64,000 nt of DNA from Torpedo marmorata (Eukaryota), in the NCBI GenBank assembly GCA_977017645.1, contig OZ360230.1, forward strand, positions 35,340,001-35,404,000, read 5' to 3'. A program made the translations under genes and the position numbers. Positions 1 to 56,137 of the stretch are shown here, one piece after another (the first letter of the stretch is position 1; the number at the start of each line of letters is the position of its first letter). The notes under the pieces were generated by a model. That model did no database searches. It had not been told where the DNA came from and saw only the letters and a program-made list of their open reading frames with translations.

Positions 1-3000
1 GGCACCTGTTCAAAATATGGCTTAATCATATTCACATGACAGACCTGTGTGTCTCGTCTGCGATGAGGTGTTTCTATGACATAAGTGACATCATTAATTT
101 TTGACCTAACTCTATAGGGTCCTGAAAATCTAGCCCTAAGAGGATTTGAATGGATGGGAAACAGAACTAATACATTCTCACCAGGTTTAAAAGTTCTCAT
201 CTTAGCCTTTCGATCATACCAAACCTTCATTCTCTGTTGAGTGGCCTTTAAATTCTCCTTTGCCATCTCACAAGCCCTATGCAACCGATCCTTACATTTG
301 AAAACATAATCTAACAGGTTTAAATGCGTATTACTATTAATCCACTGTTCTTTTAATAATCTTAAAGGACCTCTCACCTCATGTCCGAAAACTAACTCAA
401 TTGGACTAACACCAAGTGATTCTTGGACAGACTCCCTTGCTGCAAATAACAACAAATGAACCCCCTCATCCCAATCCTTTTCCTTCTCACAACAATAGGT
501 TCTAATCATGTTTTTCAAAGTCGAATGGAACCTCTCCAAGGCCCCTTGACTTTCTGGATTGTACGCAGGGGATACAATCTGTTTAACTCCCAGTCCATCA
601 ACCACTTGTTGGAAAACGCCTGACATGAAATTACTGCCCTGATCTGATTGAATTTCCCTTGGCAAACCTACCAAGGTGAAAACCTTTACCATAGCCTTTA
701 CAATTGACTTTTCTTTAATGTTTCTCAGAGGAATGGCCTCTGGAAATCTGGTGGCTGCACACATAATTGTTAACAAATACTCATTCCCCGCTTTGGTTTT
801 GGGCAATGGGCCAACACAGTCCACAATTACTCTCGAGAAAGGCTCACTGAAAGCAGGGATAAGTTGCAAGGGTGCCACCGGGGGACCCTGATTAGGTTTA
901 CCCACCACCTGACAAGTGTGACAGGCCCCGCAAAAGCTTACAACCTCCCTTCTCAAACTGGGCCAATAAAATTGTTTCATTATCTTCCTTATAGTTTTCT
1001 TCACCCCAAGGTGACCACCTAAGGGTGTGCTATGAGCCAAAGTTATTATTGCATCCCTATATACTTTAGGGATCACAACCTGCTGCACTACTGCCCATTC
1101 TTCATTGGCAGGAACATCACATGGTCTCCACTTTCTCATCAACACCCCATCTTTTTCATAATAACCCACTGGCACCTTTTTAATCTCCTCTTCAGAGAGA
1201 ACCTTATCCCTCACCTCAGCAAGATCAGGACCGTCCTTTTGCCTTGCTATTAGCTCCTGTCGGGATAGTGACAAATCTGTGCCTTTAGGTGTCTTATCAG
1301 TGGATGGGTGTAACACAGGAGATTGCTCAACCTTTTCCAGGTGTTCTTGATTATCAATGACTTTTTCTTTCACCAATTTATTTTCCACTGCCTTCTCTAC
1401 AGTGACATTTTTCTTAGACATGGCCCTGGTTATGGCACATGCCGGATAAATATCAGAATCTTTCTCTGACTTATCAATGACTGGCTTAGTTGTCATTCGC
1501 ACTGCAGGAACTACTTTACCCTTAGCCAAGTCATTGCCTAGCAACAGTGAGACTCCTTCTACTGGCAACTCTGATCTCACTCCTATTATAACAGGTCCTT
1601 CCACCAAGGCTGAGTCCAACACTATTTTGTGCAAAGGAATGGACTCAACATCACCCCCAATTCCTTTAATTAAATTCCTGTCACCGGTGTCAGTAGCTTC
1701 ACAAAATTCCAACACACTATCTAACACAAGTGATTGAGCAGCTCCAGTATCTCACAAGATTTTCACTGGAACTTGTTTTGATCCTGCCTTAACTGAAACA
1801 AAACCTCAGTCACAAAAGGTTTAAATACATCCCTAACTTTGTCAGTAAATTTATCTCCTTCCTGGGTGTTATGCCGCTTCTCACTCTGAATACAAGCATT
1901 AGGTGTTGCATCCTTTTCTCTCTTCTTTTTCAACACTGGACAGCTTGCTAGCATATGACCAGCCTTCTTACAGTAGTGGCAAATGGGACCGAAGGGTTTT
2001 CCTTTTTCCACTTTCCTTCATCCCTTTCCTTAACACCACTTCCAAATTTAATTTCCACTTGCTTGAGATTATCCACATTGACCTTTTGGAAAATTCTGCC
2101 TGACGTCCACTTAGGCTTGTGTGTTAAAGCATATTCATCTGCTAACTTAGCTGAATTTTGCCAAGTTTTCACCTCCTTTTCATCTAAGTATGCCTTAATA
2201 TCCTCAGGAACACACCTTTTTATCTCCTCGATTATTATCAATTCTGTCAATTGATTGTAATCAATGTTTACCGCCTTAGATGTGCACCACCGGTCAAAAC
2301 ACACAACCTTTTCATAGGCAAACTCTGTGTAAGATTGGGTTGCTGATCTTTTTAAATTTCTAAACTTCTGTCTATAAGCCTCTGGAACTAACTCATAAGC
2401 CTGGAGTATAGCGTTTTTCACCGTTTCATAATCAGCAGCTTGCTCCGTGGTAAGAGTACAATAAGCTTGCTGAGCTTTTCCTTTTATTACACTTTGTAAC
2501 ATAAGAGACCATTGGTCTTGTGGCCATTTTAATTTCAAGATTCAATTTATTGTCACAGCAATAAGACAGTGTCATATACCACGAAATTTCTTTTTGCCTG
2601 CTGCAAGGCAGACAGATTCGCCATCGGCAGAAATTGCCTAAGCGCCTCTAACATTCCTTACAGTCAGAGAAAGAGAAGCAAAAGAGAGTCCCCCCAGAGT
2701 TACCGAGTGTCCATAGATTCGCCTCCAGCGCTTCCGCAGCCACACAGAGTCCAGTCCAAACGATCCGCATCCTGAGCTCCGGATCCGAACCTCCAACACG
2801 GTCAGGTCGCCTCGGCACCTCCTCACATCCCGGTTCCGATACCTGGTACTCCTCCAGCCATTTCGAGCCAACCTCCAGCAGTCCGCATCCCGGCGTGAGT
2901 CCCCCGACAGCAGTCTCCAGCAGCCCACAGCCTCCGCGGGTTCCTCGCCTCGAGTTGCCAGCAGCCCGCCGCATGCACTGGTCCTTCAGCCTCAGAGCCC

Positions 3001-3957
3001 CTCACTGGTCCGCCGCTGTGCTCACCATCCCATGGGTCGTCTCCTCCGCTTCTCCTTCTCAGACGGGGGTGATCTTCCCTTCCACTGGTGCCCTGCTCCA
3101 GACCCCGCTTCCCCAGAGTCTGCAGCCCCTCGTGGCTGCTGCCGATTAATAGGCGCTGCCATCTTGGGCGCAGACCCCGCGGTCGCGGGATCTCAAATAA
3201 AACCACCGTCGCTCCTTTAACGGGCCATTCAAAGCCCCTGCGGAACCAACGGCAGTCGACTGGGCGGCTGGACCACGCGGGAGCGCTGTATTTCTGCTCC
3301 CTCGCTCCCCGCGGGTCCGCACCAGTGGCAGCGCTGCCGCTACAGCGGCTCCGGCAGCGCATCCACCTTCTCAAAATGCTGGAAGTACTTATTTATTTCT
3401 GCCTCCTCAAATGGAGGAACCAACCTAACTTCTCTACTGGCCAAAAACCCCTCAACAGGATGACGAATTTGATCTTTGTGCTCTTGTTTCCTCTCATATT
3501 CCAACTTTATATTTTTCAGCTCATATATCCTATTTTTCTCCTTGTTCTCTGAGTCTAATCTCTTTTGTTCCCTGGCTACCTCCAATTCTAATTTCCTTTG
3601 TTCCAATTCCCTGTTCTTTTGTTCGAATTCCCTGTCTAATTTCTTTTGTTCCAATTCCCTGTCTAATTTCTTTTGTTCCAATTCCCTGTCTAATTTCTTT
3701 TGTTCCATTTCCAATTTCTTTATTTCCAACTGTATGTTTTCAGAAGGTTTACCCTTGGGAAACTGCTCTAACACGCTCTCCTCAAACTTTTTTTCTTTTA
3801 TATAGTATTTGATAATTTTTCTCCCAATCTCTGCCTTTTTCATTGATGGTTTTACTGAAGAAATGACCAACTCTGTTGCTATAGCGACTAACTGTTCCTT
3901 TTTTGCCTTTTTTAAAGTATCAGGTTCAGGTGATTCCAAAAAATTTTCTACATCCAT
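1..3957 (-). pseudogene. Disrupted gag-protease-integrase of Gmr1-like copy A
   Basis: ORF pieces 3340-3981, 1948-2538 and 1763-2011 match the 36409-39993 protein (SCAN-like YELVPEAYRQKFR, zinc knuckle CHYCKKAGHMLASC). Frameshifts near 1990 and 1805, a TGA in the protease LRDTG motif (~1755) and an insertion at 2538-3362. Confidence 0.9.
2538..3362 (-). mobile_element. GC-rich non-autonomous retroposon (full-length copy) inserted in gag
   Basis: Interrupts gag between FEKV and KLKW relative to copy B. Has a Rex1/Babar-like 3' end (GACAATAAATTGAATCTT on minus). Homologous copies at 60950-61750, 62575-62878 and 30722-31090. No TSD. Confidence 0.85.
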
Positions 3958-4068
3958 TGTTGCTGGTTTTTCATTACACACACACTAGCTTTTTAATTAT
4001 CTTTACAAAAGGAATGTCTTAAACCAGACAGGGATTCCTTCAATTACCAAGATGGATTTTTAATTCAA

Positions 4069-4087
4069 ATCCAAGGACGAGCCCCCA
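4069..4087 (-). promoter_or_regulatory. Primer-binding site, tRNA-Pro type
   Basis: TGGGGGCTCGTCCTTGGAT just inside the LTR; compare the MLV tRNA-Pro PBS TGGGGGCTCGTCCGGGAT. Confidence 0.85.
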
Positions 4088-4091
4088 ATTT

Positions 4092-5043
4092 TGTTACAAA
4101 TTCAAACCAGCAACGACAGAAGACGCAATGCAAAAAGGGTAAAATTGAAATTTTACATTTATTAAAGACAATTAAACATATAATATCACAACAATTAACC
4201 CCACTATAAACGTCTATAAACACTATTCTTATCTAAAAGGTGTGTGTGTGTGTGTGTGTAAAGCCCAGACCATTACAGTTTGTGCCCAATCCTCATGTAA
4301 AAATAGAAAAACTTTCCCCCCAAAAACCTCAGGTCAGTCATAAAAAAACAAGTCAGTCCCAAAAATACAGTCCACAAAAATTCACTCTTTATGTTCAGGG
4401 TCCAAATTCAGCTCTGTGTGCTGGCAAGCAGGACTTCTTAATGAACGTTGGAGATAGACAATGACTGTTTATGCTTACGAAAACTTGGCTTGCTTTTCTT
4501 CTCTGATGACTTTCCCTTCTGGTGTTTTCACAAGGATTACGAATTCAGATCCGTTCTGGATTGAGGCGTATCCTTGGATCTCACAGTCTGTTCTTCACAA
4601 AAGCTGCTCTCAACTCAGGATTTTGCTGAATCATCAAGCGGCCTTGTATTTCTCCCAGCCTTTTCCCCTGGGATACACAAGCCTGGATTTTTCTGATTCA
4701 ATAGACTCCCTGCTATTCTCCAAACTTCTTCTCTGGGATGCACAAGCCTGGATCCTGCTGAGTTCTTCCACCTTTGCAACTCCAAAACTGCCACTGATTC
4801 AGTTTTCCACGACTGAACTTTATGTCTTCATGTGGAGAGCATTTACTCCAGCTCCCTTTTTCAAAAGTTCCACACCCAAGTATCTTTTCACAGTTTGTCT
4901 CCCCCTGGTTTCTCTCTCTGGTAAATACAAGAAGTCCTGGGCAAGTTAACTCTTTCAATACCAGGTCCCAGTGTATAGTCCAAAAGACTTCATCCTTCCT
5001 GCTTATTGTCCGCAGTCCAAATTGTCAGTCATGGTCCATAACA
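4092..5043 (-). repeat. 5' LTR of Gmr1-like copy A
   Basis: TGTTAC...ATAACA termini; both ends homologous to the LTR at 40346-41253. Confidence 0.9.
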
Positions 5044-27272: not shown

Positions 27273-29481
27273 CACAAAATGTCCCAACATCTTTTCTCAG
27301 ACTAGGCCAATAAAATTGTTTCATCATTTTATAGATAGTTTTCTTTACCCCAGGATGACCACCTAAGGGTGTGCTATGGGCCAAGGTTAAAATCTCATCC
27401 CTATAGGCTTTAGGAACTACAACCTGGTGAACAACTGCCCATTCTTCATTGGCAGGGATATCAGGTGATCTCCACTTCCTCATTAACACACCTTCCTTGA
27501 AATAATATCCAACTGGCACTTTCTTAATTTCATCAGCAGAGAGAGCCTTATCTCTCACTTCAGTAAGATCAAGATCTCTGTTCTGCCTCTCTATAAGCTC
27601 CTTTCAAGATAATGACAAATCTTTTGGAAGGTCATTACAACCTGATTGCTGCTGTGCACTGTCACAGGCTTCTGTCCTTTCTAAATCATTTTGTGCAACA
27701 CCGTCTTCACTGGCAAGCCTTTTCGCCATTGCCCGCGTTACTGCACAAGCTGGGTATATATCCAAATCTGTCTCTATCTCATCAATGACTGGCTTATCTG
27801 TTAACTTCACTGCAGGGACAACTTTACCCTCTGCCAAATCATTTTCTAATAACAACGAAACACCGTCCACTGGCAAACTTGATCGGATCTCTATCTTAAC
27901 AGGTCCATTAACTAATTCTGATTTCAACATTATCTTGTGTAGAGGTATCGACTCTGAATCACGCCCCAAACCTCGAATCAAATTCATTTCACCCATGGCA
28001 GTCTTATCACCAAACTCCAAAACACTGTCTAACACGAGTGACTGGGTGGCCCCAATATCTGGAAGGATTTTTACTGTCACCTGTGGTGACCCTTCCCCCA
28101 ACGAAACTTTACCCTCTGACATAAAATATTTGAATTCCTTCCTAATTTTACCAGCAGGACAAGATCTTTTTTTATTTCCATGTGTTTCATCTCTTTGAAT
28201 ACAGGCATCTGGTGCTGCCTCCTTTTCTTTCTTCTTCTTTAACACAGGACAACTTGTTATTACGTGACCAGGTTTCTTAAAATAGTGGCAAAGTGGACCT
28301 GAAGGTTTTTCCTTTTCTTGTCTCCCTTCTTATTTACTCCTAGCACTACTTCCACATTTGTTTTCTAATTTATTTGGATATTCCACATTACCCTTTTGGA
28401 AAGGTCTGTTGCTTGGTACAAATTTAACTTTGTGGGTTAAAGCATACTCATCCGCTAATTTAGCAGACTCTTGCCAAGTTGCCACTCCCTTTTCATCTAA
28501 ATATGCTTTTATGTCATTAGGAACACACCTTTTTATTTCCTCAACTAATATCAACTCTTTTAGTCTGTTATAGTCACCATTTATCTCTTTTGATATGCAC
28601 CATCGGTCAAAGCACAGAGCTTTGTCATATGCAAAATCCATATCAGACTGTGTCACCGATTTTCTCAAATTCCTGACTTTTTGTCTATAAGCTCCTGGAA
28701 CCGATTCATAAGCCTTAATCACAGCTTCCTTTACAGTATCATAATTAGCGGCTTGTTGAATTGTAAGGGCAGAGTACACCTGCTGAGCCTTCCCTTTGAT
28801 TACACTCGGTAACATGAGGGACCAATGGTTTCTTGGCCATTTCAAACTCTCAGCAACTTTCTCAAAATGCTGGAAATATTTATCAATGTCAGCCTCATTA
28901 AATGGAGGAACTAACTTCACCTCCCTACTAGACATAAAACTCTCACGAGAACCAAAAGATTGATCTCCTCCTTCTCTCCTATTTCCTCTTTCAAACTCTC
29001 TTTGTTTTTCAGCTTCCTCAGCTTTATGTGTTTCTAGATCTATCAAAAACTGCCTTTGTTCTCTTTCAAACTGCCTTTGTCTTTTTGTTTCCTCTCTTTG
29101 TTTTTCTGCTTCCCGCACCTCTAATTTACTTTCTTCTTACTCCATCTCCAGTGCACGTAGGTCAAGCTTCTTTTGTTTCTCGGCTTCCTCCGCCTCAAAT
29201 CTCCTTTTCTCTCTGTCACTCTCAAATCAAAAATTTTCTAACTCAACCTGTTCCAACTGCTGCTCACAGGATTTACCCTGAAGAAATTGTATTAACTCCT
29301 CCTCTTCAAACTTCCCTGTTATTACATAATATTCACCTGTAACTTTCTGGATCGCTATTTTTTTCATCGACTGTTTTACCACCGCAAGTTTCAACTTTTG
29401 GGTGATAAGCAACAAGTCATTCTTTGTCACCCCCTTCAAATCTGCAAAGACTGGCAATTCCAAAAACTTCTCAATATCCAT
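27273..29481 (-). pseudogene. Disrupted gag-protease-integrase N-terminus of copy C
   Basis: ORFs 29227-29541, 28330-29118 (SCAN-like), 27604-28245 (decayed protease ILPDIGA) and 27256-27558 (AHSTPLGGH). Confidence 0.9.
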
Positions 29482-35128: not shown

Positions 35129-35368
35129 ATACATGCATAATTATATAATACATAACAAGATGTCAATTTATTATTATTACACTACTTAGACACGATGGTT
35201 AAACCCCAGCCCCCCCCTCCCCCCCTCCCCCCAAACCAAAACCCCAGAAAAGAAGAAAGAAAAGAAGGAAAAGAAATAAAAGAAAAGTATGAAGAAAGAT
35301 AAAGTGACCTGGATAGTAAAAAGTCGCCACCTACATCATGGTTTTAATTAGTTACTTTTTTTTTTCTC

Positions 35369-36276
35369 TGTTACAGAATCAAACCAGCAACGACAGAAGA
35401 CGCAATGCAAAAGGGGTAAAATTGAAATTATTATTTATTAAACACAAGTAAACATATAATTTCACAACAATTAACCCCACTATAAACGTCTATCAACTCT
35501 ATTCTTATCTAAAAGGTGTATGTGTGTGTGTGTAAAGCCCAGACCATTACAGTCTGTGCCCAACCCTTATGTAAAAATGGAAAAACTTTCCCCAAAAACC
35601 CCAGGTCAGTCATAAAAAAACAAGTCAGTCAAAAAAGCAAAAGATACACAGTCCACAAGATTCACTCTCTAAGTTCAGGCTTCACTTCAGCTCTGGGTCT
35701 GGTAGAAGTACTTCTGAATGAACGTTGGAGAGAGACAATGACTGTTATGCTTACAAATACTTGTTTTCTTCTCTGATGACGTCCCCTTCTTGTAGGTTCA
35801 TAAGGATTGCAAGTTCCAGATCAGTATACCACTGATTTAGGCGTATGCTTGAATCTCACAGCTAGTCTCGCTGATCTCACGCCTGTTCTCCACAGAAATG
35901 GCTTTTCTCTCAGAATTTCTCTCTGAGACAGGAGGCCATGTGCTATTCTGTCAGTCTTTCTCTGACTTTTGCACACAAAACTGGATCTGGCTGTGTTCTG
36001 TAGCCTTGCAACTCACAACTGTCTGCTTTGCAGAGATCTGCCCCTGCTTTTTGCAGAAGTGAAACAAATGTATCTTCTTCAGCCTGTCTCTGTCTCTCTC
36101 TCTGGTCTCTCTCTGTCTGGGTACACCAGAAGTGTGCAACAATGTATCTTGTCTGGGTACACCAAGTAGCTGGGGAAGTTAACTCTTACAGTACCTGGCC
36201 CCAGTGTATACTCCAAAAGAATTCATCCTTCCTGCTAACCGTCCGCAGTCCAAATGGTCAGTCATGGTCCATAACA
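35369..36276 (-). repeat. 3' LTR of copy B
   Basis: Direct repeat of 40346-41253 at a constant offset of 4977; one mismatch seen (36188 versus 41165). Confidence 0.96.
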
Positions 36277-36288
36277 CCTCCCTCCCTC
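36277..36288 (-). promoter_or_regulatory. Polypurine tract
   Basis: GAGGGAGGGAGG on minus, abutting the 3' LTR. Confidence 0.88.
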
Positions 36289-36408
36289 AAAGGAAATTTT
36301 GGTCTGCAAGAACAAAATTTAGGAAAGTAAGTGAGGTGTCAGAATATAAACAAAATCTACAATGTTCATCCACAAATACAAAATATGAACTATTTTCATT
36401 GATAAAGT

Positions 36409-39400
36409 TTAACATCTAGAAAGACAATCAGCAATTACATTATCTCTCCCTTTTATATGAGTGATTACCAAATTATATTCTTGTAAAATTAGACTCCAAT
36501 TCAACAACCGTCGATTCTTATTTTTCATTTTACAAAGAAAAACCAATGGATTATGGTCAGTATACACTATGAGTGGTTTTTGAGCTGTACAGATATACAC
36601 ATCAAAATGTTGTAGAGCCAACACAAGAGCCAACAACTCTTTCTCTATAGTTGAATAATTCCTTTGATGATCATTGAACTTCTTCGAGAAGTAGGATACC
36701 GGATGGTCAATGTCCTCTTCGTTCTTCTTCTGTAACAGCACCGCACCCACAGCTTCATCGCTCGCATCCACGGCTAAAGAAAACGACTGTTCTAAATTAG
36801 GTGACTTAAGCACAGGTTGGTGGCATAACATGGCTTTCAATTTGACAAATGCTTCCTGACAACCTGTAGACCATACAAATTTCTCTTTCTTTCTAAGCAA
36901 ATTTGTGAGAGGGAGCGCAAGATCAGCAAAGATTTTACAGAACTTGCGGTAGTAGCCAATCATTCCCAGGAACCTCCTCAGAGTTTTCTTACCAGTTGGA
37001 ACAGGGAACTCGGAAATAGCGACAACCCTTTCCTCTACTGGCGCCAACTTCCCCTGTCCTACAACATAACTCAGAGAATTAACAGTTCCATGACCCTCTC
37101 TGAAACTGGTTCTATCTGTCTCCTCCTTACCCCTGTCAATAACCAGTACCTCTGGTACATTTTCAGTCCCTTTGTGTGGCACCTGATCAAAATATGGCTT
37201 AATCATATTCACATGACAGACCTGTGTGTCTCGTCTGCGATTAGGTGTTTCTATAACATAGGTGACATCATTAATTTTTGACTTAACTCTATAGGGTCCT
37301 GAAAATCTAGCCCTAAGAGGATTTGAATGGATGGGAAACAGAACTAATACGTTCTCACCAGGTTTAAAAGTTCTCATCTTCGCCTTTCGATCATACCAAA
37401 CCTTCATTCTCTGTTGAGTGGCCTTTAAATTCTCCTTTGCCATCTCACAAGCCCTATGTAACCGATCCTTAAATTTGGAAACATAATCTAACAGATTTAA
37501 ATGCACATCACGATTAATCCACTGTTCTTTTAATAATCTTAAAGGACCTCTCACCTCATGTCCGAAAACTAACTCGAATGGGCTAAAACCGAGTGAATCT
37601 TGGACAGACTCCCTCGCTGCAAATAACAACAAATGAACCCCCTCATCCCAATCCTTTTCCTTCTCACAACAATAGGTTCTAATCATGGTTTTCAAAGTCG
37701 AATGGAACCTCTCCAAGGCCCCTTGACTTTCTGGATGGTACGCAGAGGATACAATCTGTTTAACTCCTAGTCCATCAACCACTTGTTGGAAAACGCCTGA
37801 CATGAAATTACTGCCCTGATCTGATTGAATTTCTCTTGGCAAACCTACCAAGGTGAAAAACTTTACCATAGCCTTTACAATTGACTTTGCTTTTATGTTT
37901 CTCAGAGGAATGGCCTCTGGAAATCTGGTGGCTGCACACATAATTGTTAACAAATATTCATTCCCCGCTTTGGTTTTGGGCAATGGGCCAACACAGTCCA
38001 CAATTACTCTCGAGAAAGGCTCACTGAAAGCAGGGATAGGTTGCAAGGGTGCCACCGGGGGACCCTGATTAGGTTTACCCACCACCTGACAAGTGTGACA
38101 GGCCCGGCAAAAGCTTACAACCTCCCTTCTTAAACTGGGCCAATAAAACTGTTTCATTATCTTACTTATAGTTTTCTTCACCCCAAGATGACCACCTAAG
38201 GGTGTACTATGAGCCAAAGTTATTATTTCATCCCTATATACTTTAGGGATCACAACCTGCTGCACTACTGCCCATTCTTTATTGGCAGGAACATCACGTG
38301 GTCTCCAGTTTCTCATCAACACCCCATCTTTTTCATAATACCCTACTGGCACCTTTTTAATCTCCTCTTCAGAGAGAACCTTATCCCTCACGTCAGCAAG
38401 ATCCGGATCATCCTTTTGCCTTGCTATTAGCTCCTGTCGGGATAGTGACAAATCTGTGCCTTTAGGTGTCTTATCAGTGGATGGGTGTAACATAGGAGAT
38501 TGCTCAACCTTTTCCAGGTTTTCTTGATTATCAGTTTCTTTTTCTTTTTCCAAGTTATTTTCCACTGCCTTCTCTACAGTGACATTTTTCTTAGACATGG
38601 CCCTGGTTATGGCACATGCCGGATAAATATCAGAGTCTTTCTCTGACTTATCAATGACTGGCTTAGTGGTCATTCGCACTGCAGGAACTACTTTACCCTT
38701 GGCCAAGTCATTGCCTAACAACAGTGAGACTCCATCTACTGGCAACTCTGATCTCACTCCTATTATAACTGATCCTTCCACCAAGTCTGAGTTCAATACT
38801 ATTTTGTGCAAAGGAATGGACTCAACTTCACCACCAATTCCTTTTATTAAATTTATGTCACCGGTGTCAGTAGCTTCACAAAATTCCAAGACACTATCTA
38901 ACACAAGTGACTGAGCAGCTCCAGTATCTCGCAAGATTTTCACTGGCACTTGTTTTGATCCTGCCTTAACTGAAACAAAACCATCAGTCACAAAAGGTTT
39001 AAATACATCTTTAACTTGGTCAGTAAATTTATCTCCTTCCTGGGTGTTATGCATCTTCTCACTCTGAATACAAGCATTAGGTGTTGCATCCTTTTCTCTC
39101 TTCTTTTTCAACACTGGACAGCTTGCTATCATATGACCTTCCTTCCTACAGTAGTGGCAAATGGGACCTGAATTGTTTTCCCTTTTCCACTTTCCTTCAT
39201 CCCTTTCCTTAACACCACTTCCAAATTTACTTTCCACTTGCTTCTGATTATCCACCGTGACCTTTTGGAAAATTCTACCTGACGTCCACTTAGGCTTGTG
39301 TGTTAAAGCATATCCATCTGCCAACTTAGCTGAATCTCGCCAAGTTTTCACCTCCTTTTCATCTAAGTATACCTTAATATCCTCAGGAACACACCTTTTT

Positions 39401-40209
39401 ATCTCCTCGATTATTATCAATTCTCTCAATTGATTGTAATCATTGTTTACTTCCTTAGATGTGCACCACCTGTCAAAACACACAACCTTTTCATAGGCAA
39501 ACTCTGTATAAGATTGGGTTGCTGATCTTTTTAAATTTCTAAACTTCTGTCTATAAGCCTCTGGAACTAACTCATAAGCCTGGAGTATAGCCTTCTTCAC
39601 CGTTTCATAATCAGCAGCTTGTTCTGTGGTAAGAGTAGAATAAGCTTGCTGAGCTTTTCCTTTTATTACACTTTGCAACATAAGAGACCATTGGTCTTGT
39701 GGCCATTTCAATTTCACAGCCACTTTCTCAAAATGTTGGAAGTACTTATCTATTTCTGCCTCCTCAAATGGAGGAACCAACCTAACTTCTCTACTAGCCA
39801 AATACCCCTCAGCAGGATGACGAATTTGATCTTGGCGCTCTTCTTGTCTCCTCTCATTTTCCAACTTTATCTTTTCCAACTCATATTTCCTATTTTTCTC
39901 CTCGTTCTCATATCTCTTTTGTTCTCTGTCTATCTCCATGTCTAATCTCTTTTGTTCTCTGGCTGCCTCCAATTCCAATTTCTTTAATTCCAACTATATG
40001 TTTTCAGAAGGTTTACCCTTGGGAAACTGCTCTAACAATTTTTTTTCTTTTATATAGTACTTGACAATTTTTCTCCCAATCTCTGCCATTTTCATAGATG
40101 GTTTTACAGAAGCAATGCCCAACTCTGTTGCTATAGCCACTAACTGTTCCTTTTTCGCCTTTTTTAAAGTATCAGGTTCAGGTGATTCCAAAAATTGTTC
40201 TACATCCAT
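36409..40209 (-). pseudogene. Gag(SCAN-like, CCHC)-protease-integrase-RNase H polyprotein; TAG at 39994-39996 and RT core missing
   Basis: 1194-codon open frame: CHYCRKEGHMIASC, LRDTGA, HSTPLGGH..CRACHTC, VDCVGP/SDQGSNF/GALERFH, then directly GHGTV..YVVGQG, RRFLGMIGYYRKF, DASD, YSTIEKE, TDHNPL, NVIADCLSR. No YxDD motif. Confidence 0.93.
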
Positions 40210-40323
40210 TGTTGCTGGGTTTTTTTTTGTTACACACACACAAGCTTTTAATTAGCTTTACCAAAAGGAATGCCTTAAACCAAACTGGGATTCCTTCAAT
40301 TACCAAGATGGATTTTGATTCAA

Positions 40324-40342
40324 ATCCCGCAACGAGCCCCCA
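40324..40342 (-). promoter_or_regulatory. Primer-binding site, tRNA-Pro type (variant)
   Basis: TGGGGGCTCGTTGCGGGAT, 3 nt inside the 5' LTR. Confidence 0.85.
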
Positions 40343-40345
40343 ATT

Positions 40346-41253
40346 TGTTACAGAATCAAACCAGCAACGACAGAAGACGCAATGCAAAAGGGGTAAAATT
40401 GAAATTATTATTTATTAAACACAAGTAAACATATAATTTCACAACAATTAACCCCACTATAAACGTCTATCAACTCTATTCTTATCTAAAAGGTGTATGT
40501 GTGTGTGTGTAAAGCCCAGACCATTACAGTCTGTGCCCAACCCTTATGTAAAAATGGAAAAACTTTCCCCAAAAACCCCAGGTCAGTCATAAAAAAACAA
40601 GTCAGTCAAAAAAGCAAAAGATACACAGTCCACAAGATTCACTCTCTAAGTTCAGGCTTCACTTCAGCTCTGGGTCTGGTAGAAGTACTTCTGAATGAAC
40701 GTTGGAGAGAGACAATGACTGTTATGCTTACAAATACTTGTTTTCTTCTCTGATGACGTCCCCTTCTTGTAGGTTCATAAGGATTGCAAGTTCCAGATCA
40801 GTATACCACTGATTTAGGCGTATGCTTGAATCTCACAGCTAGTCTCGCTGATCTCACGCCTGTTCTCCACAGAAATGGCTTTTCTCTCAGAATTTCTCTC
40901 TGAGACAGGAGGCCATGTGCTATTCTGTCAGTCTTTCTCTGACTTTTGCACACAAAACTGGATCTGGCTGTGTTCTGTAGCCTTGCAACTCACAACTGTC
41001 TGCTTTGCAGAGATCTGCCCCTGCTTTTTGCAGAAGTGAAACAAATGTATCTTCTTCAGCCTGTCTCTGTCTCTCTCTCTGGTCTCTCTCTGTCTGGGTA
41101 CACCAGAAGTGTGCAACAATGTATCTTGTCTGGGTACACCAAGTAGCTGGGGAAGTTAACTCTTTCAGTACCTGGCCCCAGTGTATACTCCAAAAGAATT
41201 CATCCTTCCTGCTAACCGTCCGCAGTCCAAATGGTCAGTCATGGTCCATAACA
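40346..41253 (-). repeat. 5' LTR of copy B
   Basis: TGTTAC...ATAACA termini; repeat of 35369-36276. Confidence 0.96.
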
Positions 41254-42749
41254 TCTCATATATTTCTCAGGAGGAAATTAATGAGGCACTTGATAAGGGA
41301 AAAGAAAAAACTATAAGTTTATTCCTACAGTTTGTAAATATGGGCGCCATATTTTCAAAAATACATCATATTTATTTCTTAAATTGTAAGTAATCTTCTC
41401 AAGTGGGATACAACTACGCATTTCTGTATTCCACCATTCCATACCCAAATGGGAGTCTGATTTCCAAGTTACTGCTATACATTTTTTTGCTACTGCTAAT
41501 GCAATTTTTAAGAATTCTTTTTGATACATATTTAATTTCAATTTGGGTCTTGTCCCCTCAATGTTACCTAATAAAAACAACATTGGATCTTGTGGAAATT
41601 TAGTTCTCATAATCTGCTCTAAAAAGGTTTTTAAATCTATCGAAAAATATCTTACTTTAGGGCAAGACCAAGTTGAATGTATAAAAGTTCCTATTTCCTG
41701 ATTACATCTAAAACATTGATCTGATGAGTCTGATTTTAACCTTTTCACTTTCTGTGGTGTAATTTTTAATTGATGTAAGAAATTATATTGAACCAATCTG
41801 TACGTAACATTTATTGTATTTGTCATACTATCTCGACATAACTCCGACCAGTTTTGTTCATCAATATTTATGTTCAAATCCATCTCCCATCTTTAGCTAG
41901 ATCTATGAATCCCTTTCTTTAAAGTTCCTTTTTGTAATAAATTATACATAACTGAAGTAAATTTTTTTATACGACTGTTCCGAATCAAAATGTCAATGCC
42001 ACTAGGTTTCGGTAATAGCATTGTTGGGCCTAATTTTTCTCTGTGCTACTAGTGTTTGAGAATGAGGAGTAGACTCTAAATTTCACTCATCAGCAGTGAA
42101 CAATATAGAGAAAGGGAAGAATTAATGTTAATATTGGCTTAACTAGGTGTTACTTTTCACTGTTAAAAAAGGGAATTCTCTCTGAAATGTTTTCTTCCAA
42201 ATTCTGTTTCGTCTCAGATGGCACAGGTTCTAAACAGTAATGGTTAAATTTTATGTAAGCTATTTTTCAGCTGCGTGAGCCTCATAATGTCACAGCAGAC
42301 AAAATCTCTTTGGAATTTGCCTCTTCACTCTTTCAAACCAGTGGGCCACAAATGGATCATATAATCCCAATGGAGTTACTAGGAAATTGCTTGTGACTAA
42401 TACAGTGATGTGTACTGACATTGACTGACTTACTGGAAAGCTAATGGAAAATACTAGATCTGTTTGTATTTTAGTTAGCATAATACACCACAAAAGGAGG
42501 CCATCGGCTAGTTTAGCTCTTACTGGAATATTCAATGAGTTTTGCATAACATCAAAAGAAATAATTGTGTGGAAAGGATTATCTATATTTAGGCTGTTTT
42601 ATACACTGATTGCCTTTATTGAACTCTCTTCTTTCCTCTCAGCTTTGACATTTACTGTTAATTTCCATCCAGTCACACTTGAATGAAAAACAGAGAAGCA
42701 TTCATCCTCCTCAATTAAATTTGAAAGGGCTTTGGATCACAATGAACGG

Positions 42750-51998: not shown

Positions 51999-52210
51999 TG
52001 ATATGCCTATCAATTAGCACTCAAGAGACTATGAGTGGGTTAACGAACCATAGGCTTTAATACACATAAAACAGACCAACAGTAGACCTGCAGATCTCTC
52101 CCGGACTGTGGGCGGAGCAGTGGCACACAGGCCTTTATTCAGGTGAGAAAAGGGGAGGGATTACCTGGACACCCAAAGGAGGGGAGAGGAGTCGCCGGGA
52201 CAGACAGCAG
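51999..52210 (-). repeat. 3' LTR, lacking its first ~32 bp
   Basis: Matches 55894-56105 with one mismatch seen, then joins the integrase C-terminus directly. Confidence 0.92.
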
Positions 52211-55200
52211 GTCCCGAATTGAGACCGTGTCCTCTCTCCCATCCGGGAAGACCACGTAGGCGTACTGCGGGTTAGCGTGCGCTAACTGCACCCTCTGGAC
52301 CGCGGGCTCATATTTGCTGCTCCGGAGGTGGTTGCGGAGCAGCACCGGCCCCGGAGACGTCAGCCAGGCAGGCAGGGCGGTTCCGGTGTTCGACCTCCTG
52401 GAGAAGGAGAAAAATCTCTCATGAGGCGTTACATTGGTGGCTGTGCACAGTAAGGACCGTATCGAATGGAGGGCTTCGGGGAGAACATCTTGCCAGCAGG
52501 AAACCGGCAGTCCCCTGGACTTGAGAGCCAGGAGCGCCGCCTTCCAGACAGTGGCGTTCTCCCTTTCCACCTGTCCATTACCTCGGGGGTTGTATGCGGT
52601 GGTCCTACTAGTGGCGATGCCCCGGGTCAGCAGGAACTGGCGCAGCTCCTCACTCATAAAAGCTGATCCCCGGTCGCTATGAATGTAGTTCGGGAAGCCG
52701 AACAGCGTAAATACCTGGCAAAGAGCTTTTATGGTTGAGGCAGCCGAAGTGTCGGGGCAGGGAATGGCGAAGGGGAACCGCGAGTACTCGTCAATAATGT
52801 TCAGAAAGTACACATTGCGGTTCGTGGAGGGAAGGGGGCCCTTGAAGTCAATGCTGAGACGTTCAAAGGGGCGAGTGGCTTTGATCAGCTGTGCCTTGTC
52901 GGGGCGGTAGAACTGGGGTTTGCACTCTGCGCAAACCCGGCAACTGCTGATCATTGTCCTGACCTCTTCCAGGGAGTATGGCAGGTTCTGTGACTTCACG
53001 AAGTGAAAGAACCTGGTAATTCCTGGGTGGCATAGGTCGTCATGTAGGGCGTGTAATCGGTCGACCTGCGCGCTGGCGCATGATCCCCGGGATAGAGCAT
53101 CGGAGGGCTCATTGAGCTTCCCGGGCCGGTACATGATGTCATAATTGTAGGTGGAGAGCTCTATTCTCCACCTCATGATCTTGTCATTTTTGATCTTACC
53201 CCGCTGCTGATTGTTGAACATGAATGCCACAGAGCGTTGATCTGTCAGCAGGGTAAAATGCTTACCGGCGAGATAGTGCCTCCAATGCCTGATGGCCTCC
53301 ACTATGGCCTGGGCTTCCTTCTCCACCGCTGAGTGCCTAATTTCGGGGCCCTGAAGGGTTCGAGAGAAAAATGCCACCGGCCTTCCCGCCTGGTTGAGGG
53401 TAGCAGCCAGCGCGAAGTCCGATGCGTCACTCTCCACCTGGAAAGGTGTCTCCTCATCCACTGCGTGCATTGTTGCTCGCGCAATGTCCCCTTTTATAAG
53501 GTCGAACGCCTTACGTGCCTCCGAAGCAAGGGGAAATGCAATGGATTTCACAAGGGGTCGGGCCTTATCCGCATAATTTGGGACCCATTGGGCATAATAG
53601 GAAAAGAACCCCAGGCATCGTTTAAGGGCTCTGGGATTGGTGGGGAGCGGAAGTTCCAGCAGGGGCCGCATGCGTTCGGGGTCTGGTCCAATTACCCCGT
53701 TCTCGACCACATACCCCAAAATAGCGAGGCGAGTGGTACCAAACACGCATTTTTCTTTGTTATACGTGAGGTTTAGAGCTTCGGCCGCCTGCAGGAACCT
53801 CCGGAGGTTGTTGTCATGGTCCTGACGATCATAACCACAGATGGTAATGTCGTCAAGATATGGGAAAGTGGCTTTAAGTTTGTAATGGTCCACAATCCTG
53901 TCCATCTCCCGCTGAAAAACAGAAACACCATTAGTAACACCAAACGGAAGGCGCAGGAATTGGAACAGCCTGCCATCTGCCTCGAACGCGGTGTATGAAC
54001 AGTCCTCCCGACGGATAGGGAGCTGGTGATATGCCAATTTCAAGTCGATGGTGGAAAAGAGACGGTATTGGGCAATTTGGTTCACCATCTCCGCTATCCG
54101 TGGTAGCGGGTATGCGTCTAGTAGCGTAAACCTGTTAATGGTTTGGCTGTAGTCCACCACCATTCTGCTCTTGGCCCCTTTTACAACAACCACCTGGGCT
54201 CTCCAGGGACTATTACTCTTCTCTATAATCCCTTCCTGTAGCAATCTCTGTACCTCCGTCTTGATAAATGCTCTGTCCTCGGCACTGTAACGTCTGCTTT
54301 TAGTTGCCACAGGCCTACAGTCCGGGGTCAGGTTCGCAAACAACGACGGAGGCGAGATCTTAAGGGTGGAGAGACCACAGGTGGTTTCGGGCGTGCTATC
54401 CAGAAACTGGTGGTTGGCTACAGTGATCGCGGGGAGAGGACCGTCATACCGCATTGTAACGCTCTGCAAATGGCTTTGAAAATCCAAACCCAGTAACACC
54501 GGCGCACACAAACGGTTCATGACAAACAAGGAAAATTGCCAGTACTCAGTCCCTTGTACCACAATGTTCGCCACACACGCCCCCCGGATGTCTGTTGTGT
54601 GGGACCCCGACGCCATGGCCACCCTCTGGCTTACCGGTACAATCGTTAGGCCACAGCGTTGAACAGTATCCGGGTGGATAAAGCTCTCAGTGCTGCCAGT
54701 GTCGAATAAACACGTTATCTTGTGTCCCTCGACCAGTATGTCCATCATGGATCTTGTCAGCTGGTGGGGAACGTTCTGGTCGAGGGTGATGGATGCCAAA
54801 GTTGGGGTGAAGTCGTCTTGGTCCGAGGTCTTTAAAAATGGCCGCTCCCGTGGGTTGCACGTGTCGCTGGAGGTCTCTGTACAAAATGGCGGCGCCGGAA
54901 GTGCAGGAAGTAACGAGGTACGGCTCTGAGATGGCGGCGCCGGAAGTGCCAGCATGAAAGATGGCCGCTTCCACTCCTCACACGCTGTCGGCGCCAGAAG
55001 TGCCAGTCTGCAAGATGGTCGCTCCCATCTCTCGCACGCGGCACTACTCGGGCCCACGCGCGGCTTGGAGCGGCAGGCCTTCGCGAAGTGGCCTTTCTTG
55101 CCGCAGTTGGAACAAGTCGCGTCACGGGCCGGGCAGCGTTTCCTCGTATGCTTGTCGAGCCCGCAGAAGTAGCACTTCTCGGGCTCGCGATTAACAGCTG

Positions 55201-55870
55201 CGGCGGTGAGAGTAGCGTCGGTAGTGGTCGGGTCGCGGGTAGCGGCGGCAGCAATCGGGTCGCGGGCCACAGCGGCCACAATTGGATCGGTGGGGCTGGG
55301 GAACGGGGCGATCCACGCATTAGCCTGGGGGTCCCGCGTCTGCATCGCGTCGGAGTTCTGCAGCGCGGACTCCAGCGTGCGGGCCATCGCCACCCCAGAA
55401 CGGAGATCGAGGTCAGAGTGCTCCAGCAGTCGCTGGCGTACGTATACTGACCTCATCCCCATAATAAAGGTGTCCCTCTCCAGCAGATCAACATGTTGTT
55501 CTTCAGTCAGCGCTTTACAGGCGCACGCTCGCACTAGGGACTGGATGTCCCTGACAAAGTCCACTATTGACTCCCTGGCCCGCTGTTTTCGTAACGATAG
55601 TCTATACCTCACGTAGACCTCATTAACGGGGGTCACATAGATCTTTCTCAGTGCCTCCATCGCCTCGTCGTACGTCCCACATTTCCAGATGGTTGAATAC
55701 AACTGAGGGCTTACCCTAGATACTAGGACCTCTAGTTTCTGCTCGTCGCTTTCGGCCTTGACCTCCTTTGAGAACGATCGGAGGCAGCGTAGCCAGTGTT
55801 CGAATGCATGGCCAGCATCAGGAGCTAAAGGGTCGATGTCCAGTCGGTCCGGTCGGAGGGCGCCTTCCAT
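52139..55870 (-). CDS. Gag-Pol polyprotein (2x CCHC, protease, RT, RNase H, integrase), 1243 aa from the first internal ATG
   Basis: CYFCGLDKHTRKRC and CSNCGKKGHFAKAC, LFDTGS, LPFG, YLDD, SDASD, TDQRS, HDDLCH..CRVCAEC, IDFKGP/HSDRG/GQVERE; no internal stops. Confidence 0.93.
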   Translation of the reverse strand: MEGALRPDRLDIDPLAPDAGHAFEHWLRCLRSFSKEVKAESDEQKLEVLVSRVSPQLYSTIWKCGTYDEAMEALRKIYVTPVNEVYVRYRLSLRKQRARESIVDFVRDIQSLVRACACKALTEEQHVDLLERDTFIMGMRSVYVRQRLLEHSDLDLRSGVAMARTLESALQNSDAMQTRDPQANAWIAPFPSPTDPIVAAVARDPIAAAATRDPTTTDATLTAAAVNREPEKCYFCGLDKHTRKRCPARDATCSNCGKKGHFAKACRSKPRVGPSSAACERWERPSCRLALLAPTACEEWKRPSFMLALPAPPSQSRTSLLPALPAPPFCTETSSDTCNPRERPFLKTSDQDDFTPTLASITLDQNVPHQLTRSMMDILVEGHKITCLFDTGSTESFIHPDTVQRCGLTIVPVSQRVAMASGSHTTDIRGACVANIVVQGTEYWQFSLFVMNRLCAPVLLGLDFQSHLQSVTMRYDGPLPAITVANHQFLDSTPETTCGLSTLKISPPSLFANLTPDCRPVATKSRRYSAEDRAFIKTEVQRLLQEGIIEKSNSPWRAQVVVVKGAKSRMVVDYSQTINRFTLLDAYPLPRIAEMVNQIAQYRLFSTIDLKLAYHQLPIRREDCSYTAFEADGRLFQFLRLPFGVTNGVSVFQREMDRIVDHYKLKATFPYLDDITICGYDRQDHDNNLRRFLQAAEALNLTYNKEKCVFGTTRLAILGYVVENGVIGPDPERMRPLLELPLPTNPRALKRCLGFFSYYAQWVPNYADKARPLVKSIAFPLASEARKAFDLIKGDIARATMHAVDEETPFQVESDASDFALAATLNQAGRPVAFFSRTLQGPEIRHSAVEKEAQAIVEAIRHWRHYLAGKHFTLLTDQRSVAFMFNNQQRGKIKNDKIMRWRIELSTYNYDIMYRPGKLNEPSDALSRGSCASAQVDRLHALHDDLCHPGITRFFHFVKSQNLPYSLEEVRTMISSCRVCAECKPQFYRPDKAQLIKATRPFERLSIDFKGPLPSTNRNVYFLNIIDEYSRFPFAIPCPDTSAASTIKALCQVFTLFGFPNYIHSDRGSAFMSEELRQFLLTRGIATSRTTAYNPRGNGQVERENATVWKAALLALKSRGLPVSCWQDVLPEALHSIRSLLCTATNVTPHERFFSFSRRSNTGTALPAWLTSPGPVLLRNHLRSSKYEPAVQRVQLAHANPQYAYVVFPDGREDTVSIRDLLSVPATPLPSFGCPGNPSPFLT

Positions 55871-55893
55871 AATTTTTCTTATGTGTATTAAAT

Positions 55894-56137
55894 TGATATG
55901 CCTATCAATTAGCACTCAAGAGACTATGAGTGGGTTAACGAACCATAGGCTTTAATACACATAAAACAGACCAACAGTAGACCTGCAGATCTCTCCCGGA
56001 CTGTGGGCGGAGCAGTGGCACACAGGCCTTTATTCAGGTGAGAAAAGGGGAGGGATTACCTGGATACCCAAAGGAGGGGAGAGGAGTCGCCGGGACAGAC
56101 AGCAGTACATACAATACACAAACAGTGGTTTACCACA
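55894..56137 (-). repeat. 5' LTR, 244 bp
   Basis: TGTGG...TATCA on minus, with an ATTAAA poly(A)-signal candidate. Confidence 0.93.

Follow-up and report, generated by a model that had tools for sequence, protein, structure and literature searches.

The Gmr1 clade of Ty3/Gypsy long terminal repeat (LTR) retrotransposons has been described as placing integrase (IN) upstream of reverse transcriptase (RT) (PMC8220671), as having a SCAN-like capsid (PMC4592553) and, for Gmr elements, as encoding Gag and Pol in one fused open reading frame (ORF) that yields a single protein (PMC11117352). Helper-dependent LTR elements, their rise to dominance and their recombination with helpers are already known; the closest described cases are found among bovine endogenous retroviruses (ERVs), mouse IAP elements, two wheat families and certain pararetroviruses. 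The present case comes from a stretch of 64,000 nucleotides of the Torpedo marmorata genome (contig OZ360230.1, positions 35,340,001 to 35,404,000; hereafter the window), which carries at 35369-41253, on the minus strand, a young Gypsy element of the Gmr1 type whose RT has lost its polymerase portion in frame. The deletion behaves as one old allele in a recombining pool of elements, and only about 50 nt on either side travel with it.

The missing segment is 771 nt long (257 codons) and takes in the end of the linker between integrase and RT together with the RT fingers and palm, including the motifs MPFG and YIDD. Gag, protease, integrase, thumb and RNase H are kept. An initial annotation, made from the letters of the window, had remarked on the lack of LPFG/MPFG and YxDD, and this is borne out: six-frame translation of the element gives neither [LM]PFG nor a coding YxDD, and Pfam finds no match to RVT_1 in 35369-41253. 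The annotation was also right that pol jumps in frame, but its position, near 37096, was about 10 nt off. Comparison with 30 RT-bearing loci places the join at 37087-37084 (minus strand), where an imperfect CATGnnAC microhomology flanks the deleted segment. What had been read as the last RT motif beyond the jump ('REGHG') is in fact the native integrase-RT linker, present in RT-bearing copies. Of 40 deleted copies, 37 have 146 nt between an anchor in the linker and one in the thumb; in RT-bearing copies the spacing is mostly 915-918 nt. A reading of the junction as a deletion plus an 18-nt filler was dropped, as according to the RT-bearing loci the filler reflected a private deletion in a neighboring member of the family (copy A, described below).

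The retained RT segment aligns to residues 259-475 of Ty3 RT (E 2e-35), the closest of the solved structures, and these residues comprise the thumb and RNase H; the break coincides with the boundary between palm and thumb. On the minus strand of the window, the RT remnant (36874-37083, matching Ty3 RT structure 4OL8 from residue 259) consists of a decayed palm end, where YLG is now SLS, and the thumb. It is followed by RNase H (36412-36873; Pfam RT_RNaseH), with D1148, E1191, D1218, and D1261 all kept. Protease, integrase, and RNase H have their catalytic residues in the window copy and in nearly all of the deleted copies that cover them, all four acidic residues of RNase H being present in 86-93 of 96. 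The deletion leaves the genome about 12% shorter.

The junction is neither unique to this locus nor, very probably, an error of assembly, either of which would have undone the earlier interpretation of it. A 40-mer across it has 722 exact matches in the genome (none for the reversed control), and copies with distinct target site duplications (TSDs) are among those fetched. A joint that skips 771 nt is found as well in contigs of six of eight public runs, under five organism codes, though the assembly may itself derive from one of these runs, and those of low depth may carry host DNA. In the search of public runs, no RNA dataset is on record as carrying the sequence. Possibly, then, the deletion is present in other species. 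The joint was not seen in run X5, and run X4 gave just a loose end with junction sequence. Contig depth over RT dips in runs X1, X2, X6, X7, and X11, but such depth is no basis for ranking the segments of one gene and was not used as evidence of expression. Run X11 also gave contig loose ends on L124:3300-6300. These look like adapters of a small-RNA library, so that small RNAs may arise from the family, including across the junction.

Patterns of 27 fixed bases match the genome at 15,059 deleted and 5,819 RT-bearing sites (control 0), so that 72% are deleted and deleted copies outnumber complete ones by about 2.6 to 1; these counts are lower bounds, some of the matches are tandem units, and the assembly searched (6.22 Gb) may hold duplicated haplotypes. 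A further count, 3,314, came from a pattern left of the junction that mixed the two forms, and it is not used. At full length throughout, the matched copies would occupy about 89 Mb (1.4% of the assembly); among the sampled copies, about half are complete. Deleted units also occur in head-to-tail arrays at a spacing of about 5.0 kb (G000:C1:118013533-118023609 and others), which fits the sharing of LTRs.

Loci were fetched in three sets of 40: one from the 722 exact matches, and one of deleted and one of RT-bearing copies from the first 100 listed for each pattern. The second deleted sample is without the junction variant of the window copy, which accounts for 15 of the first 100 and is younger. 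Complete copies with two LTRs make up 21 of the first deleted sample, 22 of the second, and 16 of the RT-bearing sample, of which 19, 21, and 13, respectively, have perfect 4-bp TSDs; the others are truncated, interrupted, or unparsed. Pooling the 80 deleted loci gives 43 complete copies, 40 of them with perfect 4-bp TSDs at separate sites. LTR divergence is 0.67-4.4% (n=22, median 2.3) in the second deleted sample and 0.12-5.7% (n=16, median 2.2) in RT-bearing copies (p=0.63), and recent insertions are found among the copies of the RT-bearing helper as well. RT-less copies thus insert with correct ends and are contemporary with their RT-bearing partners. Partners that contain RT and have the same LTR, of the kind the annotation had anticipated, do exist: variants of the primer binding site (PBS) are common to both forms, and a tree of LTRs intermixes them. 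The inner half of the PBS is itself variable (CCGGG, CCTAG, CGCGG, TGCGG, and others), both in the PBS of the window copy and in sampled copies of either form.

The deletion has a single origin. Of 40 deleted copies, 37 have a derived base at 9 nt past the junction and 33 have one at 12 nt; none of 36 RT-bearing copies has either, and the ancestral bases near the junction persist in the oldest deleted copies. It follows that the deletion arose once and has aged through replication. The alternative crossover dinucleotide appears in none of 100 deleted junctions among those listed.

Around this one event, the sequences reassort. In the sample of 40 deleted and 40 RT-bearing copies, the linkage between the deletion and single nucleotide polymorphisms (SNPs) has a mean r2 of 0.36 within 50 nt and of about 0.02 beyond 100 nt, and no site beyond +30 or -50 is linked to the deletion at p<0.001. 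Adding the younger deleted sample produces weak linkage (r2 0.03-0.14), as the mismatch in age is expected to do. For SNP pairs overall, r2 is near 0.17, and the four-gamete test is not passed by about 60%. In trees of individual regions (gag, protease, integrase, thumb-RNase H, and LTR; FastTree, low support, 58-60 rows), the deleted/complete label requires 13-15 changes per tree, compared with 13.6-14.4 in shuffles, and the age label does cluster. Alleles of age markers 60-70 nt from the break have swept both forms equally (22/18 and 21/18 at 70 nt), and by tree path the window copy is closest to a copy that bears RT.

The annotation had proposed that such elements form a non-autonomous subfamily. 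That proposal fails: monophyly of the deleted copies is rejected at a cost of 490 log-likelihood units (p-AU 1.55e-61; 39 rows, 23 against 16, with junction columns excluded), and the deleted copies are no separate subfamily or clade but carriers of an allele that recombines with RT-bearing genomes. The private mutation load of each copy roughly tracks the divergence of its own LTRs, which argues that exchange took place before insertion and not by heavy gene conversion. Template switching between co-packaged RNAs is described as an established route for such exchange (PMC6894440, PMC10924933).

The two forms have coexisted for long. As judged by a marker 45 nt upstream, a proxy on which one can rely in the two younger strata, where it misassigns a few percent, deleted copies account for 74% of the middle stratum (3,741 of 5,044) and 80% of the young stratum (4,413 of 5,528), the two in which the share was counted. 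The deleted share has risen slowly, and over the family it is roughly 72-80%.

A second defect of the window copy has a different history. The initial annotation had noted a stop codon in gag at 39994-39996, which is present (minus strand, codon 72), and had thought it unlikely that this and the loss of RT had all arisen since so recent an insertion. The loss of RT is indeed older than the insertion, and it has been multiplied thousands of times, with separate TSDs. The stop in its sequence context has 189 exact matches in the genome, and it is found in 5 of 85 covering copies, which belong to both forms and are not close relatives. Sixty places in the genome share a 12-nt gag deletion of the window copy; 20 of these were fetched (15 deleted, 3 RT-bearing, and 2 undetermined), and the stop occurs in none of the 19 scored. 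As a marker of lineage the stop was therefore rejected, and it is by its distribution a recurrent or private change that was not inherited together with the RT deletion. The window copy, given its stop, is probably unable to make the polyprotein.

Purifying selection is evident in the pool of copies. Among 167 of them, the ratio of nonsynonymous to synonymous changes (N/S) outside CpG sites is 3.5 for singletons and drops to 0.74 for variants that have at least 20 carriers, and no non-CpG stop is carried by six or more copies; the neutral rate is put at about 0.2-0.3 stops for each synonymous change. Purifying selection acts on capsid, on protease, on integrase, and on RNase H (ratios 0.08-0.26, p<0.003), and also on RT in the RT-bearing partners (N/S of 6/17 for shared variants and 179/68 for singletons, p=1.5e-5). 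The initial annotation had suggested dN/dS of IN and RH among deleted copies as a check. The purifying selection is there, but it cannot be assigned to the deleted copies, as the shared variants are nearly all found in RT-bearing copies too.

How might a genome without a polymerase come to prevail over those that have one? With free reassortment, and with a single old allele standing at 72-80%, the best fit is co-packaging and the borrowing of RT. The account favored here, with moderate confidence, is that deleted copies replicate by having their RNA packaged together with RT-bearing RNAs, by using the RT that the co-packaged copies encode, and by exchanging sequence with them through template switching in the shared particles. 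That RT is borrowed inside shared particles is, taken by itself, very probable. Since Gag and Pol are made as one protein in Gmr elements, with one RT per Gag, RT is likely to be in large excess in each particle. A genome that sheds RT alone, that can still be translated, and that is about an eighth shorter would then impose little cost for as long as helpers are not scarce, and the outcome would be a frequency-dependent, long-lived coexistence rather than collapse.

Perhaps the deleted genome contributes something as well. The open frame of Gag, protease (PR), IN, thumb, and RNase H (RH) may be translated and help to package its own RNA, as in IAP 1Δ1; that the frame is translated and useful seems somewhat better than an even bet. 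Slight hints point to a frame in use. The length of the deletion is a multiple of three (one chance in three), the roughly eight common changes linked to the junction include neither a stop nor a frameshift, common stops are absent outside CpG sites, and among 96 deleted copies none was seen to share a larger deletion with others. In the palm remnant, four adjacent sweeps lead away from hydrophobic and towards polar residues (I to N, Y to S, L to R, and G to S). Stops and frameshifts per synonymous change number 0.38 in young deleted copies and 0.60 in old ones, though this comparison is weak and confounded. A regression of disabling changes on LTR age is likewise taken as a hint only, LTR dates being noisy and frameshifts perhaps including errors of assembly.

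Several observations weigh against this account. Common variants specific to deleted copies number just 15 (7 nonsynonymous and 8 synonymous), and N/S at low frequency shows no difference between the two forms in any domain (p 0.11-0.9). With so few variants of their own and with N/S alike in both forms, the purifying selection belongs to the pool: that seen in Gag, PR, IN, and RH is not creditable to deleted genomes, and recombination alone could keep their frame clean. Rare-variant N/S is 2.7 in young deleted copies and 2.9 in old ones. Outside a repeat in Gag, just 2 of 52 deleted copies are free of stops and frameshifts (for RT-bearing copies the figure, leaving RT aside also, is 1 of 16). 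The window copy carries its own gag stop despite near-identical LTRs, and a closely related deleted pair, L143 and L144, shares a stop, possibly by duplication. The changes in the palm remnant fit a plain loss of constraint as well. The deleted share climbs gradually instead of holding level. And both co-packaging and use of the frame are read from sequence.

Much of this is what one would expect of a pure defective-interfering passenger, the strongest of the rivals and one that is possible though clearly less probable than co-packaging with a contributing frame. The RNA would be co-packaged and copied and its protein would be irrelevant, the frame being kept clean by recombination and its in-frame length being chance. 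In its favor, nearly no variation beyond ±50 nt is private to deleted copies, their rare-variant spectrum is near-neutral even when young, and their share has gone up between the two strata; besides, the bovine D-type ERVK, without ORFs, is described as reaching 85% and as recombining with the C-type in the same pattern (PMC10924933). If the protein were irrelevant, however, still shorter genomes should win, and the 96 deleted copies offer no larger deletion held in common. The lack of any common stop and, for what it is worth, the lower load of stops and frameshifts in young copies tell against the passenger as well.

At the other extreme, the deleted genome may be a cooperating half of the family, the source of capsid, protease, integrase, and a module of thumb and RNase H that acts as the RNase H subunit of a Ty3-type asymmetric RT dimer, with a mix of alleles at 3-4 to 1 that sets the enzyme stoichiometry of a single-ORF element under balancing selection, possibly across species splits. 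This reading is improbable. Slightly more doubtful still is a division of labor at the level of the enzyme itself, in which the thumb-RNase H module would serve as the subunit that donates RNase H to full-length RT. Ty3 RT is described as an asymmetric dimer in which subunit A polymerizes and subunit B supplies RNase H, the thumb and RNase H of subunit B moving as one by about 40 Å (PMC5371799). A break at the palm-thumb boundary that retains the corresponding residues, and the survival of the acidic residues of RNase H in most deleted copies, agree with that scheme. However, recombination with RT-bearing genomes fully accounts for the retention, microhomology dictated the breakpoint, and RT-bearing copies encode an RNase H of their own, with no complementary defect.

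Least of all is it likely that no replication is shared and that recurrent microhomology deletion, gene conversion within the genome, or collapse in assembly produced the pattern: the imperfect homology that flanks the segment and the recurrence of post-insertion microhomology deletions in the family (the RNase H hotspot below) lend it some color, but it is largely refuted by the derived alleles beside the junction that RT-bearing copies lack, and it is opposed also by the uniform crossover in the 100 listed junctions, by a frequency of 72% where another microhomology deletion has 60 exact matches in the genome, by a private load that follows LTR divergence, and by the occurrence of the joint in independent runs.

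In its other parts, the window element is as the initial annotation had it: two LTRs with one difference in 908 bp, TSD, PBS, and polypurine tract (PPT) were all found. All features lie on the minus strand. The 5' LTR (40346-41253), with TG...CA ends, and the 3' LTR (35369-36276) align over 908 of 908 bp with a single mismatch, at 36188/41165, and are bounded by the TSD GAGA, as read on the minus strand (41254-41257 on the 5' side and 35365-35368 on the 3' side). The PBS (40325-40342) follows the 5' LTR; we take it to resemble the 3' end of tRNA-Pro. The PPT (36277-36288) precedes the 3' LTR. Gag and pol are fused in a single frame of 1267 codons, running from an ATG at 40209 to 36409 and broken by the one stop at codon 72. 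The stop-to-stop frame of 1194 codons that had been noted as encoding Gag-PR-IN-RH lies at 36409-39993; Pfam matches in it are SCAN, zinc knuckle, H2C2, rve, p58_C, and RT_RNaseH. In order, it contains a SCAN-like C-terminal domain of the capsid (39295-39564; PF02023, E 1.6e-10), a CCHC zinc knuckle (39112-39159), an aspartic protease (38695-39012, limits approximate, with the catalytic DTG at codon 428), and an integrase (37195-38250) with HHCC, D738-D797-E833, and a C-terminal SH3/p58 domain. Integrase thus precedes RT-RNase H, the order being PR-IN-thumb-RH here and PR-IN-RT-RH in RT-bearing copies, the latter as the annotation had stated for the Gmr1 clade.

Within RNase H, near 36704 of the window, an ATCC repeat around CCGG is a hotspot of deletion: about 20 of 160 copies have deletions there, of varied lengths and on unrelated haplotypes (loci L035, L047, L150, L153-L156, L158, and others). 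A 7-nt deletion shared by 8 deleted and 2 RT-bearing copies was considered as an inherited marker and rejected, as it sits in this hotspot amid many different deletions and on different haplotypes.

Copy A, at 1-5043 of the window and in L001, is an older member of the family, about 95% identical. When it is read leftward beyond the window, it proves to have RT (MPFG and YIDD), yet it carries several frameshifts, an insertion in gag at about 2540-3360, and its private small deletion in the integrase-RT linker, which lies between two GAGACAGA-like repeats. In L001 at about 40-4000, minus strand, two long ORFs of 794 and 528 aa, which have a zinc-knuckle Gag and a protease-like motif, appear to resemble a BEL/Pao element. 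Two other elements lie in the window: at 27286-28945, a rearranged piece, about 71% identical, of a Gmr1-type family that is more distant, and at 51999-56105, a second young Gypsy element with 212-bp LTRs that have one difference and with the usual order PR-RT-RH-IN.

The deleted allele matters in part for what it makes accessible. Over 20,000 dated copies constitute a natural record of a helper-dependent genome and its helper in one gene pool. From that record, sequence comparison could address why defective LTR elements do not always extinguish their family, the strength of cis preference in vertebrate Gypsy elements, and the frequency of recombination during reverse transcription of LTR retrotransposons. 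It is also a caution: for a 'non-autonomous subfamily' that recombines with its helper, dN/dS can be misleading, and surveys based on RT would miss most copies of this family.

How does the element compare with what is known? Its domain order, its single fused ORF, and its SCAN-like capsid, the three features described for the Gmr1 clade (PMC8220671, PMC11117352, PMC4592553), are the grounds on which its family is classed as Gmr1-type Ty3/Gypsy, and its closest named protein homologue, from sawfish, is 73% identical. The RT-less form is absent among the best 120 of 2818 protein homologues, all 120 of which carry RVT_1. Nor was any report found in the literature of an in-frame loss confined to the polymerase, with integrase and RNase H kept, at such scale or in any Gmr1 family, Repbase and Dfam, which may hold the element, lying outside the search.

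The wheat families RLG_Sabrina_SA (PMC9744471) and RLG_Quinta (PMC11302176) are likewise described as high in copy number, with some coding capacity, and as sharing PBS, LTR ends, and periods of activity with an autonomous family. The features by which PMC9744471 recognizes non-autonomous LTR partners are found here: an essential enzyme is missing, the time of activity is the same, and the PBS, the LTR termini, and the promoter region are shared. Mobilization in trans, another such feature, is suggested by the copies that lack RT yet are bounded by TSDs. The wheat families, however, keep Gag or Gag-protease only, having neither RT nor integrase, and according to the same two sources they diverged long ago as families of their own, whereas here the deletion is an allele within a single gene pool. 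The pararetroviruses eRTBVL2/ePVCVL are RT-less, keep coat protein (CP) and PR, and are homogenized with their partners by recombination, as here, but are described as having lost the whole RT/RH domain, as having no integrase or LTRs, and as sharing only non-coding regions (PMC5491270).

Mouse IAP 1Δ1 also has an internal deletion with a fused frame and needs enzymes in trans; by the account in PMC7411935, it transposes more than the full-length form, its fusion protein acting in cis. It differs in having lost parts of both gag and pol, so that Gag and Pol are required in trans. The deleted Gmr1-type allele keeps Gag, PR, IN, and RNase H, and a cis effect, which is shown for 1Δ1, is hinted at here.

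A close parallel is also seen in the C and D forms of bovine ERVK[2-1-LTR]. There, too, the defective form is the majority (85%, compared with 72% here), the forms recombine, linkage with the form is strong only beside the boundary, and co-packaging has been inferred in the same manner (PMC10924933). The D-type, however, is described as belonging to an enveloped ERV, with no intact ORF, a swapped foreign segment, and about 400 loci, and the authors' simulations end in collapse (PMC10924933). The deleted Gmr1-type allele, in contrast, is a clean, in-frame loss of the polymerase alone, present in at least 15,000 copies, and its partners persist through the whole of the dated record.

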